From the UHGV virus genome UHGV-1351068: a stretch of DNA of 64,000 nucleotides; one strand, 5' to 3'. A program made the translations under genes and the position numbers. This document shows, piece after piece, positions 27,254 to 63,582 of this stretch. The number at the start of each line of letters is the position of its first letter. Position 1 is the first letter of the stretch. The notes under the pieces are model-generated. The model saw only the letters and a program-made list of their open reading frames with translations. It was not told the DNA's origin and did not search any database. Source of the stretch: a virus.

Positions 27254-27267
27254 GGGGCTTCGGCCCC
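27254..27267 (+). terminator. UUCG-tetraloop hairpin after gene 19
   Basis: GGGGC-TTCG-GCCCC. The downstream U-tract is poor, so termination is probably partial. Confidence 0.45.
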
Positions 27268-53716: not shown

Positions 53717-53906
53717 CGTCGTTAGCAGCCCTTAACTGAGTAATTGGATAAAGCTCGGATTCTGCATGGATTGAACGATTGCCATCAACCCAATTAACTT
53801 CATACCACGGTTCAACTGAGTAGGCTTTAATGGCTGGAGCCGTATCACACACAACTCCAGGAATTCCATTTGCTAATCTTACTGTACTGAAGATATGATA
53901 TTTCAT
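53706..53906 (-). CDS. hypothetical protein
   Basis: 66 aa ORF. ATGA coupling with the upstream small ORF. Confidence 0.4.
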   Translation of the reverse strand: MKYHIFSTVRLANGIPGVVCDTAPAIKAYSVEPWYEVNWVDGNRSIHAESELYPITQLRAANDDVY

Positions 53907-54073
53907 GCATCAAGCCTCACTGCCCATTCAGGCAATTCAAAGAAATCCGGAGCATCAATTTCATACTCAACGGTGTGTTGTTTAACATCAGCTGACATGA
54001 TATCAACCATTGGGTGGTTTTTCAAGCCGCAAGAAAAAATACCAGCTTTAGATTTAGGCACGGATACAATCAT
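53903..54073 (-). CDS. small hypothetical protein (56 aa)
   Basis: Hand-translated: MIVSVPKSKAGIFSCGLKNHPMVDIMSADVKQHTVEYEIDAPDFFELPEWAVRLDA. SD GAGGAA upstream. Stop overlaps the next ATG. Below the track threshold. Confidence 0.35.
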   Translation of the reverse strand: MIVSVPKSKAGIFSCGLKNHPMVDIMSADVKQHTVEYEIDAPDFFELPEWAVRLDA

Positions 54074-54083
54074 GTTAATTTCC

Positions 54084-54362
54084 TCAAAATTTAGTTATGA
54101 ATTTTTCTTTCGGCATTTTGGCATTTGAGCCATCACCGTCAGAATACCCAATTGGCATAGTTGCATTAATGAATTCAATCTTAGCATTTATAACATTAAT
54201 GCTCAGAGAATCTACGCCATCAACCATACGAAATTCAGGAGGGCAATACTTATCAATGTATGCTTTCACGCCATTTTTATTAGCAGGTGTACCATCGCGG
54301 GTATCGCTGATAATGGTTTCAACTTTTTTCTTTCGTGAATCATAGAAAGCTGATACAATCAT
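54084..54362 (-). CDS. hypothetical protein
   Basis: 92 aa ORF. Confidence 0.45.
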   Translation of the reverse strand: MIVSAFYDSRKKKVETIISDTRDGTPANKNGVKAYIDKYCPPEFRMVDGVDSLSINVINAKIEFINATMPIGYSDGDGSNAKMPKEKFITKF

Positions 54363-54374
54363 TTCAATTTCCTC

Positions 54375-54863
54375 TTAAAACGGGCGAATATTAACGTGAA
54401 CCACAGGGACAGCAAAAGGTTGCATGATTACAACTTTTGTGTCTTTAGTTGCATTCAGGCGTTGTACTTTTGCAAGATTAACAGCTTCTTCCTTTGTCAA
54501 TCCACCTTTGTAGGTATCATTTCCTTTATTTGAGGTCCAAACACCCCAATCATTGCTTCCATCGTCGGTCTTCGGTTCAAGTTCTTTGTAGATGGTTTCT
54601 TCAAAATAATGCTGAAATTCTTGATTAGTAATAATACACCACATGTGAGAAAAGCGAACTTCATCTACACTAACGCGTTTGCATTCTCCATCTGGCTTAA
54701 TGATTTCAAATTCAACTAATCCGGTATTTTCCGCATATTTAAAGGTTCTGGTAATTTTAATCGGATTATTACCGATTTGCTCAAAAACACCCTTGATAAG
54801 AGCTCCTGGAGACAAGCTTGGAGTCTTTTTAAGCTTATAGAATTTACCTTTTTCCATTATCAT
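54375..54863 (-). CDS. hypothetical protein
   Basis: 162 aa ORF. SD GAGGAAATGATA lies just downstream of the UUCG hairpin. Confidence 0.5.
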   Translation of the reverse strand: MIMEKGKFYKLKKTPSLSPGALIKGVFEQIGNNPIKITRTFKYAENTGLVEFEIIKPDGECKRVSVDEVRFSHMWCIITNQEFQHYFEETIYKELEPKTDDGSNDWGVWTSNKGNDTYKGGLTKEEAVNLAKVQRLNATKDTKVVIMQPFAVPVVHVNIRPF

Positions 54864-54866
54864 TTC

Positions 54867-54880
54867 CTCAATAGTGGGGC
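54867..54880 (-). promoter_or_regulatory. intercistronic UUCG hairpin (stop, hairpin, SD, start)
   Basis: GGGGC-TTCG-GCCCC between the stop at 54897 and the ATG at 54863. Confidence 0.45.
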
Positions 54881-54896
54881 CGAAGCCCCGAGTTAG

Positions 54897-55256
54897 TTAA
54901 AACTTGATTTCGTTTGAAACGATATCCCAGATTGCTTCACGTTGTTCTTCGGTTGTTTTACGACCGAGGATGTGGCGCAGATAAATTTTAACAAGCAGCT
55001 GACGATTTGTGTTCCAAGACGGATGTGAAGATAAATCACGTTTACGAACTTCATCATGGAATCCAACTTTGATTTCAGAACCGTTGAACTGAATATCCAG
55101 AGTAGGACCATTTTCAAAGCTGAAGAATACGTAGTTATCTTCCCAGTACATATCGATTTGAGCTACTGTGCCGTTGTTGTGTTCCCACAGCAAAGTAGTA
55201 GAAACGTCCCAAGCATTGTTCTGTACATATTTGCGGTTGAAGTTAGTGAAGTTCAT
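54897..55256 (-). CDS. hypothetical early protein (start trimmed to MNFTNFNRKY)
   Basis: 120 aa from the Met, which has SD GGAGAA. Lies immediately downstream of early promoter copy 3. Confidence 0.5.
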   Translation of the reverse strand: MNFTNFNRKYVQNNAWDVSTTLLWEHNNGTVAQIDMYWEDNYVFFSFENGPTLDIQFNGSEIKVGFHDEVRKRDLSSHPSWNTNRQLLVKIYLRHILGRKTTEEQREAIWDIVSNEIKF

Positions 55257-55272
55257 TTTTATTCTCCGTAGT

Positions 55273-55335
55273 TTGTTTATCTGTTTGGGTGGTACAGGTC
55301 TATAGTAACCCAGACCACCCAAGAAGTAAACAACT
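55273..55335 (-). promoter_or_regulatory. early promoter / stem-loop cassette (PeSL-like copy 3)
   Basis: Minus strand: aaaaGTTGTTTACT-N17-TACTATAGAC. The long imperfect inverted repeat TTGTTTActtcTTGGGTGGT ... ACCACCCAAacagaTAAACAA encloses the -10 element. Confidence 0.6.
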
Positions 55336-55349
55336 TTTATTCAAAAACT

Positions 55350-55859
55350 TCAGACATTTTTCACCTCTACAGTTTTTACAGTTTTTACTTCTGCAAATCC
55401 GATGCTTTTAAACAGTTCATACTTGGTAGTTTCTGGAACGATATCGGTTAGCTCAAGGATGATTTCTTTTGCTTCTTCCAGAGTAAAGATGCTTCTTCCG
55501 TCCTTAACGACCGGTGCTGGTTTAATAGCAGCTGATACTTCAAAAACCACGTAGCGGTCAGTAGTACTTTGATTTTCAAACGCTCCTATTTGCACAACCC
55601 GTCCTTCTTCTAACTCGTGAGAAGAAAATAAGCATGACAGAGACCGGTCATATTCATCTCCTATGGTTTTTGCCGAAATGATTTTACCAGTTTCGGTTTT
55701 AATCTTAACAACCCGGCCCAGCGAATCAAGTTCTAATGGCGTCCAGCCTTGAACTCCAACAACGGTGGCAATGAGATAGTTAATTGTGTTCTTAGCGTCT
55801 TTCCATCTACGGTAAGTTTCTGGGGAAATGCAATATACTCGGTTTTTGCTGTAATTCAT
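55350..55859 (-). CDS. hypothetical protein
   Basis: 169 aa ORF. Confidence 0.5.
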   Translation of the reverse strand: MNYSKNRVYCISPETYRRWKDAKNTINYLIATVVGVQGWTPLELDSLGRVVKIKTETGKIISAKTIGDEYDRSLSCLFSSHELEEGRVVQIGAFENQSTTDRYVVFEVSAAIKPAPVVKDGRSIFTLEEAKEIILELTDIVPETTKYELFKSIGFAEVKTVKTVEVKNV

Positions 55860-55877
55860 TTTGATATCCTCAAAGAT

Positions 55878-55891
55878 GGGGCCGAAGCCCC
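55878..55891 (-). promoter_or_regulatory. intercistronic UUCG hairpin
   Basis: GGGGC-TTCG-GCCCC between the stop at 55900 and SD GAGGA / ATG at 55859. Confidence 0.45.
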
Positions 55892-55899
55892 AGTCAAGA

Positions 55900-56268
55900 T
55901 TACTGTTTAGTCCAATTATCCATGTTTAATTTACCAACCTTTTTCATTTGTTCAATTAAAGCATCGGCACGATTACGACCATTTTCATACCAGGTTACAT
56001 CTTCTGAGTAACCGTCTTCTTCATCTGTGTAGGTTTCAGAACGAATACGACCAACAACTGGAGTGTTCAGAACATATACAGAACCTGTGAACCAGTTTGT
56101 TAAAGTGATATGCCAGCAGAAATCATCTGATGGACCGTCCGGTGTCATGCATGGAACGATATCACCTTGAACTTTAGACAAAATCCACATTTTCTCATGG
56201 ACAGTTTGAGCTTTGTAACCGTCATGGTCTTTAGTCTTGATAGTTGCGTTCAGGTTGATGGTATTCAT
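55900..56268 (-). CDS. hypothetical early protein
   Basis: 122 aa. SD GGAGAA. Lies immediately downstream of early promoter copy 4. Its 5' leader is near-identical to that of the gene at 55256. Confidence 0.5.
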   Translation of the reverse strand: MNTINLNATIKTKDHDGYKAQTVHEKMWILSKVQGDIVPCMTPDGPSDDFCWHITLTNWFTGSVYVLNTPVVGRIRSETYTDEEDGYSEDVTWYENGRNRADALIEQMKKVGKLNMDNWTKQ

Positions 56269-56279
56269 TTTATTCTCCG

Positions 56280-56340
56280 TTGTCCGTTTGGGTGGTACAG
56301 GTCTATAGTAACCTTGTTGAACTTAGAAGTAAACAACTTT
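56280..56340 (-). promoter_or_regulatory. early promoter cassette (PeSL-like copy 4, upstream stem arm degenerate)
   Basis: Minus strand: aaaaaaGTTGTTTACT-N17-TACTATAGACCTGTACCACCCAAAC. About 70 nt is near-identical to copy 3. Confidence 0.6.
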
Positions 56341-56354
56341 TTTCATTCTGCGGA

Positions 56355-56384
56355 AAATAAAAAAGGGACTCCCGAAGGAGTCCC
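56355..56384 (-). terminator. rho-independent terminator
   Basis: Minus strand: GGGACTCC-TTCG-GGAGTCCC followed by TTTTTTATTTT. Confidence 0.7.
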
Positions 56385-56389
56385 TGAAC

Positions 56390-56566
56390 TTATGCTTTCG
56401 GCTTACCAAAACGAGAAGCATCATCGCGAAGAACCGCACGAGCCCGACGCATGATTTTCTCAACCGTCTGATTGATACGCTTGTTCGACCCACGCTTGTA
56501 GCCAGCGCGTTTAGAGGTACCAACAACTTCTTTTACTGCAGTTTTTGCTTTAGCTTGTTTAGCCAT
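56390..56566 (-). CDS. small highly basic protein (58 aa from MAKQAKAK)
   Basis: Sequence MAKQAKAKTAVKEVVGTSKRAGYKRGSNKRINQTVEKIMRRARAVLRDDASRFGKPKA. Lys/Arg-rich. Start uncertain: the track's 68-aa version begins 30 nt upstream. Confidence 0.4.
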   Translation of the reverse strand: MAKQAKAKTAVKEVVGTSKRAGYKRGSNKRINQTVEKIMRRARAVLRDDASRFGKPKA

Positions 56567-56596
56567 TTTATCATCTTCCATTTTGGAGAAATACAT

Positions 56597-56935
56597 GGGA
56601 GCACGTTCTTCCGAGGTTCAACTTCTTTCGACAGTTCTTTCGGTTGTAGCTCCCGCAAGCCCTCAAGGGGGTACGTTTAAACTCTTATCTGTTGCACACC
56701 GTTAGCTTAAAGGTTCCGGGTCCGATTTATCGGGGATAAGATATACACCGATGGATGTATAGGCCTTGAGGCGTACTCCCGATTGGCCATCGCCTCGGGG
56801 TAGCATGCACTTGCCGTTTATTTTCTAGCTGCACTTTGGTAGCAAATCACCGTTGGTTTCGGGTGTTTTACGTGGGGATAACCAACAACGTCCACATCAT
56901 ACGTTACCCATGCGTACACATGGTGGGCGTACAAA
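56597..56935 (-). ncRNA. ORF-free GC-rich hairpin-dense island; candidate structured non-coding RNA or long structured leader
   Basis: 340 bp with no ORF above 36 aa in any frame. About 48-50% GC against about 40% for the flanks. Multiple stems, for example GAGGCG...CGCCTC, GTTGGTT...AACCAAC, GGGAGC...GCTCCC and CCGA...TCGG. Confidence 0.3.
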
Positions 56936-57184
56936 TTACTTCAGCGTTACCACAAAGTGGCGAACAGCTTTGCGAGCAGCAGAACCAAGATGCTTAGCAT
57001 ACTTCAGTTCGTCCATCGCTTCTAAAGTATCACGAAATTCAGCTTGTGCTGGGTTCAGGTGTTTAAACCCTTTCAGAACTTCCAGTGTTTCTGCATAGAT
57101 ATCGATTGAAGCACCGTAGTTTTCGTGACCGGAATTCCATGCATTACGTTGGAGTTCCAGAGCTTTAGTAAGTTGTTTGTTCAT
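56936..57184 (-). CDS. rIII: rIII lysis-inhibition accessory protein (start trimmed to MNKQLTKALELQRNAW)
   Basis: 82 aa from the Met with SD GAGGAA, the same length as T4 rIII. Position immediately downstream of gene 31, as in T4. Confidence 0.65.
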   Translation of the reverse strand: MNKQLTKALELQRNAWNSGHENYGASIDIYAETLEVLKGFKHLNPAQAEFRDTLEAMDELKYAKHLGSAARKAVRHFVVTLK

Positions 57185-57299
57185 TGAATCGTTCCTCAAA
57201 TGAGGTTAAAATTTGGTGGACGGTAACCGAGGTTTAGCTCGGGCATCCACCGCGTAGAATTGCTCGGGTAACTAATTGTCCGACGCCCAATTCATATTA

Positions 57300-57623
57300 T
57301 TATTTATATACGCATGCAAGGGACTTATAATGACAAGTCACAAACTTCTGCCGAATTTCTTTGGGTTTCTTCACACCTGCTGCTACTAACGGATGAGGTA
57401 CGTTTCTGATATTACCAACAGGCAGTGGAGTCAAATCACCGACTTCAACAAATCCTTTCGGTACATCATCACCGATAGAATAGATTTCACACATATCCGG
57501 CAGTTGTCCTTGTTCTTCTTTTCCAAGAATAATACCGGAAGGAGAAACAATTTCATCACCTTGCTGTGCAGGTTCAGATACGAGAATTACATACTCGCCT
57601 AGAGCTTTAATTGGAAGTTCCAT
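57300..57623 (-). CDS. 31: co-chaperonin gp31 (GroES-like)
   Basis: 107 aa. Long near-identical runs to T4 gp31: [45 protein letters not shown]. Confidence 0.92.
57301..57308 (-). promoter_or_regulatory. late promoter for rIII
   Basis: Minus-strand TATAAATA overlapping the gene 31 stop. Followed by a GC-rich structured leader. Confidence 0.5.
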
Positions 57624-57653
57624 GTGTTACCTTTATTGTTTGACCATGTAGTT

Positions 57654-57680
57654 ATATTAACATGGTCAGTTTAAAGCAAA
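57654..57680 (-). promoter_or_regulatory. MotA-dependent middle promoter for gene 31
   Basis: Minus strand: TTTGCTTTA (MotA box), 12 nt, then TAATAT. SD AAAGG follows, then the ATG at 57623. Confidence 0.5.
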
Positions 57681-57989
57681 TTACTTACCGATCATCTGCT
57701 GCAGATGCTCAACTTTCATACCATTTACCGAGATCAGTTTATCAAAGGTAAATGAGCGCCAACCTTCTTTCTCAGTATCATATACAGGAAGTGAAGTAGT
57801 GCTTTCTGCTCGAGCAGATTTAGTAGTGCTTTCTACCAAATCAGATGGAATAATGTCTTTATCACGAGTACAGCGCAGAGTACGAATAGTGCCATCAGCT
57901 TTTTCAAACACAATCTGGGATTCGCCCATGCTCAGCACAGCCTTCAGAGTTTCACGAATATGGATGTTTTGTTCAGTAGTCAGTTTCAT
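57681..57989 (-). CDS. hypothetical protein (positional equivalent of T4 31.1)
   Basis: 102 aa ORF. Confidence 0.5.
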   Translation of the reverse strand: MKLTTEQNIHIRETLKAVLSMGESQIVFEKADGTIRTLRCTRDKDIIPSDLVESTTKSARAESTTSLPVYDTEKEGWRSFTFDKLISVNGMKVEHLQQMIGK

Positions 57990-58186
57990 TTTGATGTCTC
58001 TTTAATAGTTTTGATAATTACAGATTTGCGCTTGGATAATTCTTTTAATAATCGAACTGCTTGATCTTCAAATTTAAATGTTGCTAATGGTTTCCATTTA
58101 AACCAATACCGGCGTTCTACTGAGTATGATATAACAACATCACCACTTAGGTTAAGTTTATTAATTTCAACAATTCTAAGTTTCAT
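57986..58186 (-). CDS. hypothetical protein (positional equivalent of T4 31.2)
   Basis: 66 aa. ATGA coupling. Confidence 0.45.
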   Translation of the reverse strand: MKLRIVEINKLNLSGDVVISYSVERRYWFKWKPLATFKFEDQAVRLLKELSKRKSVIIKTIKETSK

Positions 58187-61871: not shown

Positions 61872-62368
61872 AGTTTAAGGATAACCTCTACGATATCATC
61901 ACGGGATAATCCCGAAATGAGGATGTGACGATCAGAACTTTCCGAAGGAGAACACTTGAAGCAAGCTTCTACATATTCTGCCATCTCGGAATAATTCAGC
62001 TCGCGATGCATAATGCCAAGACGATGTTTGCCATAAATCGGGTCAACGATTACATAGCATTTGCATCCGTTGGCATGAACGTTTGGTTGAGTGATGTTCT
62101 TGAACACCTCTGCACCATACTTCGCGAGATGATTATCTAGGAAATCAATCATTTCATCTACGGCTTCAGGCAAGGCTTCAGCACGCTGCTCGTTCACACG
62201 ATTGGTGTACTCTTTTTGCTTCTTACGAGCAGCTTCCTTACGCGCCATATGCGTTCGTAGGTCAGTGACGAATCCCACTTTCTTGGTGCCATTCCACACA
62301 AAAATCCCGTCGGAATGAGTACCATATTTGTTAACAACCATATCTAAAGTAATTGCTTGCATATCCAT
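61859..62368 (-). CDS. alc: Alc-like protein (positional equivalent of T4 alc)
   Basis: 169 aa (T4 Alc is 167 aa). Lies between rnlA and pseT.3, as in T4. Has its own early promoter. Confidence 0.45.
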   Translation of the reverse strand: MDMQAITLDMVVNKYGTHSDGIFVWNGTKKVGFVTDLRTHMARKEAARKKQKEYTNRVNEQRAEALPEAVDEMIDFLDNHLAKYGAEVFKNITQPNVHANGCKCYVIVDPIYGKHRLGIMHRELNYSEMAEYVEACFKCSPSESSDRHILISGLSRDDIVEVILKLCSK

Positions 62369-62374
62369 TTCATT

Positions 62375-62432
62375 ATCCTCATCAGTTGGTGTAAGTCTAT
62401 AGTATCACACCTTGATGAGGATGTAAACAGCT
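62375..62432 (-). promoter_or_regulatory. early promoter / stem-loop cassette (PeSL-like copy 5) that sequesters the alc SD
   Basis: Minus strand: ctGTTTACA-N17-TACTATAGAC. The 10-bp perfect inverted repeat ATCCTCATCA/TGATGAGGAT, plus the inner GGTGTGA/TTACACC, encloses the -10. The 3' arm contains SD GAGGAT. Confidence 0.6.
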
Positions 62433-63582
62433 ATTCTTCAGAAATTTCAATTTCTTTTTCGTACTCTTTTGGAACATATCCAGCCCAGTACTTCAAGAAC
62501 ACTTTTTCAAGGTCTTTAAGCAGTTTATCTACATCTACTGTTCCTTCATACATGTTCATGATAACACCAAAAAGATGACGCTGATTAACCGTTGCTTTCT
62601 GTGCAGCAATGGCATAGTCTTTACGAGCACGACCTCTGTATTCATCATAGAATGACTGACACAGCTCAAGTGACTTTCCAAGGTAATCTAGATAAGCTTG
62701 CTCAAATGCAGAAATTTTCTTAATTGCATATTCGTCTCCAGCAAAAAGAGAACGCAAGTCATCAGAGTTTGCAGATACGACAGACGCAAACAGTCTTTCA
62801 TTTGACGTTATTGAGTCTTTGGTGTGATGAAGAGCTGAGTACCATTCTGTTTTAACCTTAAATCTCTGCCCAGTGTTTAGAACTGCAATGTATCCTTCTA
62901 CGCCTTCAAGTGCACGAACACCTTCAACCCAAGTACTAGGGTCAGAAATTCCATAAGCATTAATTAAATAAGGACGAATTTTAGCATTAGCGTACAAATC
63001 GTCATATTTAACATACTCGCCGGTTGCGTTATCACGGACGTTTAACACAAACAATTGTGGCTCCTGATATGCAAGAACAACACGATTATCAGGTGAAACA
63101 AATTCCATGTTTACCGTATAACCATCTAGCGTTAACTCAAGAACGACTTGATGAAGCGAAGAATACTCTTCACTATTAAGCAGGGCAGAAGACCTTCTCG
63201 CCTGGTCACTATAAAGAGAGGTTTTTGATTTAAGATATAGATACCCATCATCAACATAAGATGACACTAGAGAGCCATCAGCCTTATCCATAATGTATTC
63301 TACATCACTAATATCAATTCCCATTGTCATCGGGTTTTCATTCAAGTTAAAGAATTTTTCCATTGGACGAGAAGCAATACGAATTGGAGTATCACCATCC
63401 ATTTCAAACATGATGCCACGGCACTCAAGAGCATCTGGTTTTAACCACTCGCTATAACTTGCGTAGTGATATGAAAACACTCTGAACTTACCATCCATAG
63501 GACCAGTAAAATCTTTATAAAAGAATTTTGCAACTTCTGAGCTTTCACACAGATTCATTAAATTTTTATATAGCTCTAACAT
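62431..63582 (-). CDS. rnlA: RNA ligase 1
   Basis: 383 aa (T4 Rnl1 is 374 aa). N-terminus and ALECRGIMFEMDG, IASRPMEKFFNLNENP match T4. Adenylation lysine in KADGSL. Confidence 0.92.
   Translation of the reverse strand: MLELYKNLMNLCESSEVAKFFYKDFTGPMDGKFRVFSYHYASYSEWLKPDALECRGIMFEMDGDTPIRIASRPMEKFFNLNENPMTMGIDISDVEYIMDKADGSLVSSYVDDGYLYLKSKTSLYSDQARRSSALLNSEEYSSLHQVVLELTLDGYTVNMEFVSPDNRVVLAYQEPQLFVLNVRDNATGEYVKYDDLYANAKIRPYLINAYGISDPSTWVEGVRALEGVEGYIAVLNTGQRFKVKTEWYSALHHTKDSITSNERLFASVVSANSDDLRSLFAGDEYAIKKISAFEQAYLDYLGKSLELCQSFYDEYRGRARKDYAIAAQKATVNQRHLFGVIMNMYEGTVDVDKLLKDLEKVFLKYWAGYVPKEYEKEIEISEE

Follow-up and report, generated by a model that had tools for sequence, protein, structure and literature searches.

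Why would two regulatory regions about 1 kb apart in one phage genome read almost alike when the proteins encoded behind them are unrelated? The question is raised by a stretch of 64,000 nucleotides (nt) from the virus genome UHGV-1351068 (the window), in which a region before gene 30.7 (55257-55345, copy A) and another before gene 30.8 (56269-56345, copy B) share most of their promoter and leader. The window comes from a T4-like Klebsiella phage of the genus Jiaodavirus in the Straboviridae; the locus region is 99.9% identical to Klebsiella phage ValerieMcCarty04 and 97-99.8% identical to many further Jiaodavirus phages. On sequence comparison, the repeats are very probably the Jiaodavirus early promoters of 30.8 and 30.7, built as PeSL-type cassettes, which share a block through exchange and which recombine with each other, deleting 30.8 and the open reading frame (ORF) behind it, ORF169. 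In the PeSLs of phages RB49 and phi1, an AT-rich region, a sigma-70-type promoter, a stem-loop, a Shine-Dalgarno (SD) sequence and a start codon follow one another in hyperplastic regions of the genome (Arbiol 2010, PMC2839356).

The two copies agree in blocks

Aligned without gaps, 55277-55338 and 56280-56341 are 84% identical over 62 nt, and a gapped alignment from the AT-rich region to the ATG matches at 70 of 89 positions. The near-identity that had drawn attention to the locus (the original prediction) is real and far above chance, although at 79-84% it stays below the more than 85% expected for the leaders. The agreement falls into blocks. Around the -35 hexamer, 17 nt are exactly shared (AAAAGTTGTTTACTTCT), followed by a divergent promoter spacer of 12-13 nt; an exact block of 28 nt (GGTTACTATAGACCTGTACCACCCAAAC) then covers the -10 hexamer and the first ~16 transcribed bases; and after a divergent leader, 13 nt around the SD are again exact (ACGGAGAATAAAA), just before the ATG. 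Both copies carry the SD GGAGAA, as predicted, and GGAGAATAAA(A)ATG. The copies had been thought to differ by a clean indel replacing the upstream stem arm; that difference is actually a substitution of equal length (TGGGTGGTCTGG vs AAGTTCAACAAG), and the indel (8+1 nt) sits in the leader. With up to three mismatches allowed, the 28-mer occurs in the window only at the A and B sites (0 of 100 shuffles). An exact scan of IMG/VR found it only at this locus, with one occurrence in a complete 167-kb genome and no third copy elsewhere in the genome.

Cassette A has its -35 hexamer GTTTAC at 55326-55331, a spacer holding the 5' arm of a stem (TTGGGTGGT), its -10 hexamer TACTAT at 55302-55307 in a hairpin loop, the shared core at 55283-55310 with the 3' arm (ACCACCCAA), a leader (AGATAAACAAACT) complementary to the -35 region, and the SD at 55262-55267. 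Cassette B consists of an AT-rich region, GTTTAC at 56329-56334, a 17-nt spacer, TACTAT at 56305-56310, the shared core at 56286-56313, a short leader and the SD at 56273-56278. tgaagtttttgaataaaag directly follows the ORF169 stop codon in A, and ttttttattttccgcagaatgaaaaaag follows a terminator in B.

The proteins behind the copies are indeed dissimilar. No similarity was found between gp30.8 and gp30.7 (BLASTP E=28; hhalign probability 0.1%), which belong to separate Pfam families, or between the next two ORFs downstream, ORF169 and ORF162 (BLASTP E=11; hhalign 0.2%). The hhalign comparisons were local and used family alignments from 20 loci, with 17-18 and 4-7 sequences per family. Single-sequence AlphaFold models of gp30.8 and gp30.7 are both β-rich with C-terminal helices, at low confidence (predicted local distance difference test scores of 52.5 and 42.8), and a sequence search of the PDB for relatives of gp30.7 and gp30.8 returned nothing.

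Both copies match the T4-type early promoter

Scanning the window for the T4-type early-promoter pattern gave five good sites, all on the minus strand (62439, 56345, 55342, 48612 and 447) and each directly upstream of an SD and a start codon. They share AAAGTTGTTTAC, a spacer of 17-18 nt and TACTAT(AGAC). Copies B and A, the second and third of these sites, both read TTTACT-N17-TACTAT and match the PeSL consensus of T4/PST, TTTACW-N17-TAYWAT, described together with the elements of KVP40/nt-1 (Comeau 2014, PMC4122927). In T4 too, early-type promoters precede 30.8 and 30.7 at the orthologous positions; the early promoters of T4 belong to the sigma-70 type, are very strong and act immediately after infection. 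The repeats had been taken for regulatory cassettes, and as combinations of promoter, leader and SD they deserve the name.

How far is the similarity specific to this pair? The other three early promoters are 60-77% identical to A and B, with longest exact shared blocks of 10-16 nt. The A/B pair stands apart from them solely through the 28-nt block; pair-specificity holds for that block, and the remainder of the similarity is in part the phage's general early-promoter consensus. Searching 54000-58000 against Rfam at E<=1 gave no match, hence no known RNA family in the leaders.

Relatives carry a single chimeric copy

A complete IMG/VR genome that lacks 30.8 and ORF169 has one promoter between 30.9, the gene upstream of 30.8, and 30.7. 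With the junction of this genome as the query for single-promoter records, we found 33 phage records (~29 distinct phages) in which 30.9, one promoter and 30.7 lie in one piece. The 30.8-ORF169 module is present in 111 records, once in each.

The single promoters are composites of A and B, and their composition places the crossover. In KPV15, KpV477 and KP179 the junction retains both the spacer and the leader of B, which puts the crossover in the SD/ATG block; in PKO111, Roth19 and Nispero the B spacer is joined to the A leader, which places it in the 28-nt core. The junction of 5N has B sequence upstream, the A spacer with its stem arm and a mosaic leader, pointing to a crossover in the -35 block and further switches. 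By comparative genomics, these are deletions that leave one chimeric promoter, the result expected under the PeSL model when genes are excised between two flanking cassettes. Recombination between cassettes had been one of the two explanations first offered, and it gains from the ~29 related phages with one chimeric copy and the intervening genes gone. The idea of swapped or transposed cargo is not supported: gp30.8 and gp30.7 keep their T4 order between 30.9 and 30.6.

Gene order at the locus

All genes of the locus lie on the minus strand. In order of transcription, the features are:

57300-57623, minus strand: gp31, first in transcription order
56936-57199, minus strand: rIII, after gp31
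56597-56935, minus strand: ORF-free stretch of 339 nt between rIII and 30.9
56390-56596, minus strand: gene 30.9, by T4 synteny
56364-56385, minus strand: intrinsic terminator after 30.9, GGGACUCC-UUCG-GGAGUCCC followed by a U-run
56269-56345, minus strand: cassette B, putative early promoter P30.8, fits TTTACW-N17-TAYWAT
55900-56268, minus strand: gp30.8, 122 amino acids (PF06019, E 1e-55; phrog_1507; T4 30.8 synteny)
55857-55891, minus strand: UUCG-loop hairpin GGGGCUUCGGCCCC, SD GAGGAT and the ORF169 ATG; member of a second repeat pair
55350-55859, minus strand: ORF169, 169 amino acids (phrog_5804), accessory, not in T4 at this position
55257-55345, minus strand: cassette A, putative early promoter P30.7 inside a hairpin, by fit to the T4-type early consensus and by folding
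54897-55256, minus strand: gp30.7, 119 amino acids (PF06919, E 5e-60; phrog_1582; T4 30.7 synteny)
54855-54889, minus strand: UUCG-loop hairpin GGGGCUUCGGCCCC, SD GAGGAA and the ORF162 ATG; member of the second repeat pair
54375-54863, minus strand: ORF162, 162 amino acids (phrog_8920), accessory between 30.7 and 30.6, not in T4
54084-54362, minus strand: 30.6, last in the order

The products of 30.8 and 30.7 are conserved T4-type early proteins with no function assigned, and PHROGs places gp30.8, ORF169, gp30.7 and ORF162 in four separate families of unknown function. T4 keeps the order 30.9, 30.8, 30.7, 30.6, but without ORF169 and ORF162; the genes that vary at the locus are the ORFs inserted after 30.8 and after 30.7. 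The two members of the second repeat pair (54855-54889 and 55857-55891) are 83% identical and 1002 nt apart, and copies A and B are 1003 nt apart. These spacings are nearly equal because the 9-nt difference in length between the two genes of ~120 codons is offset by the 9-nt indel in the leaders. T4 has an orthologous hairpin, GGGGCTTCAGCCCC, after 30.7. A third exact copy of the hairpin sequence GGGGCTTCGGCCCC lies at 27254-27267 on the plus strand, distant from the locus.

The second pair has been used for recombination as well: in KP182, ORF169, P30.7 and 30.7 are lost, with the crossover inside the 14-nt UUCG hairpin. Altogether, the 30.9-30.6 interval occurs in five structural haplotypes within Jiaodavirus.

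Several records show other rearrangements of this interval. An extra ORF of 162 amino acids stands between ORF169 and cassette A in 34 records, for example in KpnM6E1 (L002 1537-2025). It is a paralogue of ORF169 (29% identity, E 1e-9), flanked in the AT-rich region by the direct repeats AGTTTTTGAA...AATAAAAG, so that the arrangement in the window could derive from it by microhomology deletion there. ValerieMcCarty01 (L003 1500-1680) has a 93-bp tandem duplication running from the 3' end of ORF169 to the -10 hexamer of cassette A; each copy contains an N, and an assembly artefact is possible. The ~2-kb deletion in Mexia (L030 1700-1975) was considered as a cassette event and rejected, as a short microhomology joins codon 12 of 30.8 to the 3' end of ORF162. 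The phage has lost 30.8 beyond codon 12, all of ORF169 and 30.7, and most of ORF162, which makes the 30.8-ORF162 block dispensable, and promoter B drives a fused remnant ORF. AM.K1 (L028, an unverified record) has no interpretable junction. In two IMG/VR T4-like contigs of 158-160 kb (L007 2368-2932 and L008), 30.8 is absent and the promoter after 30.9 precedes ORFs of 90 and 75 amino acids; the latter carries the FTLEKAKK motif of the ORF169 family and may be a split or frameshifted relative of ORF169.

P30.7 lies in a hairpin and P30.8 does not

Copy A folds with a minimum free energy of -28.4 kcal/mol (z-score -4.3), and none of 200 shuffles is as stable. Within the paired region (55270-55335), the spacer arm TTGGGTGGT pairs with the transcribed arm ACCACCCAA, and the -35 region pairs with the A-specific leader AGATAAACAAACT, leaving the -10 hexamer in the loop; all of the sequence specific to A is hairpin-forming. 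No internal hairpin is seen in copy B (-9.6 kcal/mol, z +0.2). Some 30 nt upstream of its -35 hexamer is the terminator at 56364-56385 (-18.2 kcal/mol, z -3.7), the sole terminator-like call in 53900-57700, and a terminator upstream of P30.8 is also found in T4 and other genera. The UUCG hairpin at 55857-55891 folds at -14.9 kcal/mol.

The same asymmetry recurs in other lineages. In T4, PG7-like phages, Merlin-like phages and two more lineages from IMG/VR, P30.7 has a strong hairpin across the -10 hexamer (z -4.6 to -6.8), with arm sequences that differ in every lineage, and P30.8 in T4, the PG7-like and Merlin-like phages and two more lineages has no such hairpin (z -0.06 to -1.9). In the PG7- and Merlin-like phages, the SD GGAG is itself part of the 3' arm at P30.7. 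Since the position of the hairpin has been kept while its sequence has turned over, the structure is probably under selection. This conserved, position-specific difference had been overlooked in the original prediction, as had the PeSLs as a described class of element.

What might the hairpin do? Because its 5' arm lies upstream of the start site, hairpin A would be restricted to RNA reading through from P30.8 or to a DNA cruciform. It does not qualify as an intrinsic terminator, since the stem is followed by ACAGAUAAACAAAC with no U-run and was not called by the terminator scan. Given this lack of a U-run, the most likely roles, on read-through RNA, would be attenuation, protection or stabilization of 3' ends, or modulation of 30.7 translation.

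Hairpins across the -10 hexamer (z -4.1 and -3.8) also enclose two further early promoters of the window, at 62365-62442 and 375-450 on the minus strand. In the first, the 3' arm UGAUGAGGAU includes the SD, so that read-through RNA would mask the ribosome-binding site.

Where did the shared 28-nt block come from?

P30.7 and P30.8 of the same genome have in common an exact, lineage-specific block over the -10 hexamer and the first transcribed bases. It measures 28 nt in the window and 26, 22, 21 and 15 nt in other lineages; in T4, the exception, it is only 11 nt. Between lineages, orthologous promoters match exactly over just 7-16 nt. This is a pattern of concerted evolution among promoters within a genome, to which a promoter signature of the whole lineage may add. 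The 28-nt block appears better explained by homogenization of two resident early promoters, through gene conversion or crossover. As for its direction, the 3' arm of A's stem is present in copy B, where it has nothing to pair with, and T4 reads CCTGTACC after the -10 hexamer at P30.7 and not at P30.8. On these two grounds we suggest, with moderate confidence, that the block was copied from A to B.

Several observations weigh against parts of this reading. The copying direction is argued from the orphan arm and a single distant outgroup, T4. A third promoter has the lineage block in the PG7- and Merlin-like phages, so similarity there may be in part a lineage-wide promoter signature instead of pairwise conversion. 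The three classes of junction could partly stem from later exchange between deleted and undeleted phages and need not all be independent deletions. As to the promoters, a generic TTGACA/TATAAT sigma-70 scan calls neither copy (8 of 12 matches), and a TGn extended -10 is found in neither. Concerning the hairpin, a terminator role for A is doubtful without the U-run, and the structure ends 2 nt before the SD in this phage, where SD occlusion is uncertain.

Other explanations of the block can be set beside exchange between the copies. One starts from the hairpin: P30.7 would contain a riboregulatory switch that tells read-through RNA from promoter-proximal RNA (by attenuation, by masking of the SD/RegB site or by 3'-end protection), with a constant position but a sequence that has completely turned over across at least six T4-like lineages, and the block on P30.8 would be a functional signal for co-regulation and not a by-product of gene conversion. 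We regard this as unlikely.

Convergence, in which shared selection for recognition by RNA polymerase, S1 and RegB produced the similarity and nothing was ever copied, is a poor candidate. It would fit the resemblance among all five early promoters of the window, which have the -35 block, TACTATAGAC and a CA-rich leader in common, and the presence of one block in three promoters of the PG7- and Merlin-like lineages. However, the 28-nt block extends ~16 nt beyond the -10 hexamer, where the other three promoters differ; its stem arm has no partner in B and hence no structural reason to be there; and the natural chimeras prove exchange between the copies.

No better placed is a dedicated cis-regulatory element, such as an operator or a binding site in the RNA leader, that co-regulates 30.7 and 30.8 and is kept by selection. 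In several Jiaodavirus genomes both copies have the block exactly, next to a copy B spacer that varies (ctaagttc, ctagactc, ctaggctc, ctaggttc), and a complete genome contains the block nowhere but at this locus, as might be expected of such an element. But no candidate factor was found, the Rfam search of the region was empty, and other lineages carry quite different blocks at both promoters, for which conversion alone suffices.

An ancient tandem duplication of a 1-kb module (promoter, ~120-codon gene, hairpin, ~165-codon gene) with later divergence of the proteins, which the matched spacings, the paired lengths (122 vs 119 and 169 vs 162 amino acids) and the two low-confidence β-rich models might recall, is highly implausible in view of the negative protein comparisons and separate Pfam and PHROG families, of T4, where 30.8 and 30.7 are adjacent without ORF169 or ORF162 and the promoters share only 11 nt, and of the strain of combining non-coding identity with total protein divergence absent conversion; even ancient paralogy could not account for a 28-nt identity that T4 lacks.

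A model for the cassettes, and how it compares with known systems

If the copies are early promoters that recombine, each cassette would be a composite of an AT-rich region, a sigma-70 early promoter (GTTTAC-N17-TACTAT), a stem-loop, a CA-rich leader and a GGAG SD. Going by the consensus, host RNA polymerase would fire both promoters immediately after infection, and by analogy with T4 the RegB RNase would probably target the GGAG SDs and shut off the early mRNAs. Cassette B, placed after an intrinsic terminator, would need no hairpin; cassette A, an internal promoter exposed to read-through from B, would be buried in one, with the -10 hexamer in its loop. The 28-nt block would result from sequence exchange between neighbouring promoters and not from gene duplication. 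As direct repeats of ~80 nt lying 1 kb apart, the cassettes would serve as substrates of homologous recombination, by which 30.8-ORF169 could be deleted (in principle also re-inserted), one chimeric promoter being left.

Translation start and RegB shut-off are the probable reasons for the conservation of the 13-nt SD block. Each SD contains GGAG in the context it has in T4, and a RegB homologue is encoded in Jiaodaviruses (57% identity), with RegB homologues in 162 Klebsiella phage records. The 30.7 mRNA of T4 is a known RegB substrate, cut at the SD GGAG (PMC9409239).

The closest described elements are the PeSLs. Their whole layout is shared, and like them the cassettes occupy intergenic sites of a hyperplastic region. 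The stem-loop overlaps the -10 hexamer in A and sits upstream of the promoter in B, as in PST, both placements having been described. Relatives that have lost the genes flanked by two cassettes retain a single chimeric one, just as proposed for RB49 ORF192. The sequence features that mark a PeSL can be read from the locus: promoter, stem-loop in or near it, SD with start codon, hyperplastic location and recombination to chimeric cassettes. Unlike the PeSLs described before, however, those at this locus belong to a Jiaodavirus of Klebsiella, have other arm sequences and no polyG/polyC stem, and flank a conserved T4 gene, 30.8, and not ORFans alone; the crossovers fall inside the promoter core and the SD and not in the AT-rich region.

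The T4 promoters of 30.8 and 30.7 agree with those of the window in position, in the -35 hexamer GTTTAC, in the SD context GGAGAATAAA(A)ATG, in the terminator before P30.8 and in the hairpin across the -10 hexamer of P30.7. They differ in sharing just 11 nt exactly, and in that no ORF stands between T4 30.8 and P30.7. Truncaite et al., cited in PMC9409239, reportedly studied this region of T4 experimentally in 2006 (Virology 344:378). The review by Uzan & Miller does not mention 30.7 or 30.8.

Promoters inside hairpins are also found at T4 gene e (lysozyme), soc and I-TevI. There, long transcripts fold the ribosome-binding site away, and those that start within the hairpin can be translated. 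As in the window, a promoter within the stem-loop limits the structure to read-through RNA; by contrast, those promoters are late ones, and the hairpin in the window ends before the SD. The attC sites of integrons offer a looser parallel, in that short structured repeats flank small genes that are gained or lost as units, possibly via circular intermediates. Here, though, there is neither an integrase nor an attC structure; recombination is general homologous recombination between promoters, and each cassette has its own.

The mechanism is thus a described one, and no new one is revealed; what is new is a well-documented further case of PeSLs and T4 early promoters. With more than 140 sequenced genomes in the genus, cassettes 1 kb apart can be seen to yield presence/absence polymorphism of two early genes, and the chimeric junctions place the crossovers in blocks of just 13-28 nt. 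This supports a view of T4-like phages in which homologous recombination between a phage's own regulatory signals reshuffles its accessory early genes, and it makes the locus an easy system for measuring such events. For annotation, 30.8 and ORF169 are dispensable in nature, and the repeated promoter blocks should not be taken for transposon ends.

A candidate structured RNA upstream of gene 30.9

The 339-nt stretch between rIII and 30.9 (56597-56935, minus strand) contains no ORF and has a guanine-cytosine content of 0.50 vs ~0.40 nearby. A core of ~140 nt is almost invariant across T4-like genera whose flanking proteins are just 60-80% identical. Its consensus fold has 46 pairs and is 98.7% paired (slid controls, 23-39%), with compensatory changes at five pairs, a number that 0 of 500 shuffles reach, and the G-U pairs favour the gene-sense strand. 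The stretch has no Rfam match (E<=1). It is present once per genome in 15 IMG/VR T4-like contigs, and the T4 version is shorter and diverged. We consider it a candidate for a conserved structured RNA or a long 5' leader of 30.9.

Just downstream, 30.9 encodes a small and very basic protein (…MAKQAKAKTAVKEVVGTSKRAGYKRGSNKRINQ…), whose identity is 87-100% in several genera and reaches 93% with T4 across residues 25-68, conservation far above that of its neighbours. Translation of 30.9 probably begins at the internal MAKQ, where the annotations of phage 311F and T4 place the start. It is possible that gp30.9 is an RNA-binding partner of the upstream structure.

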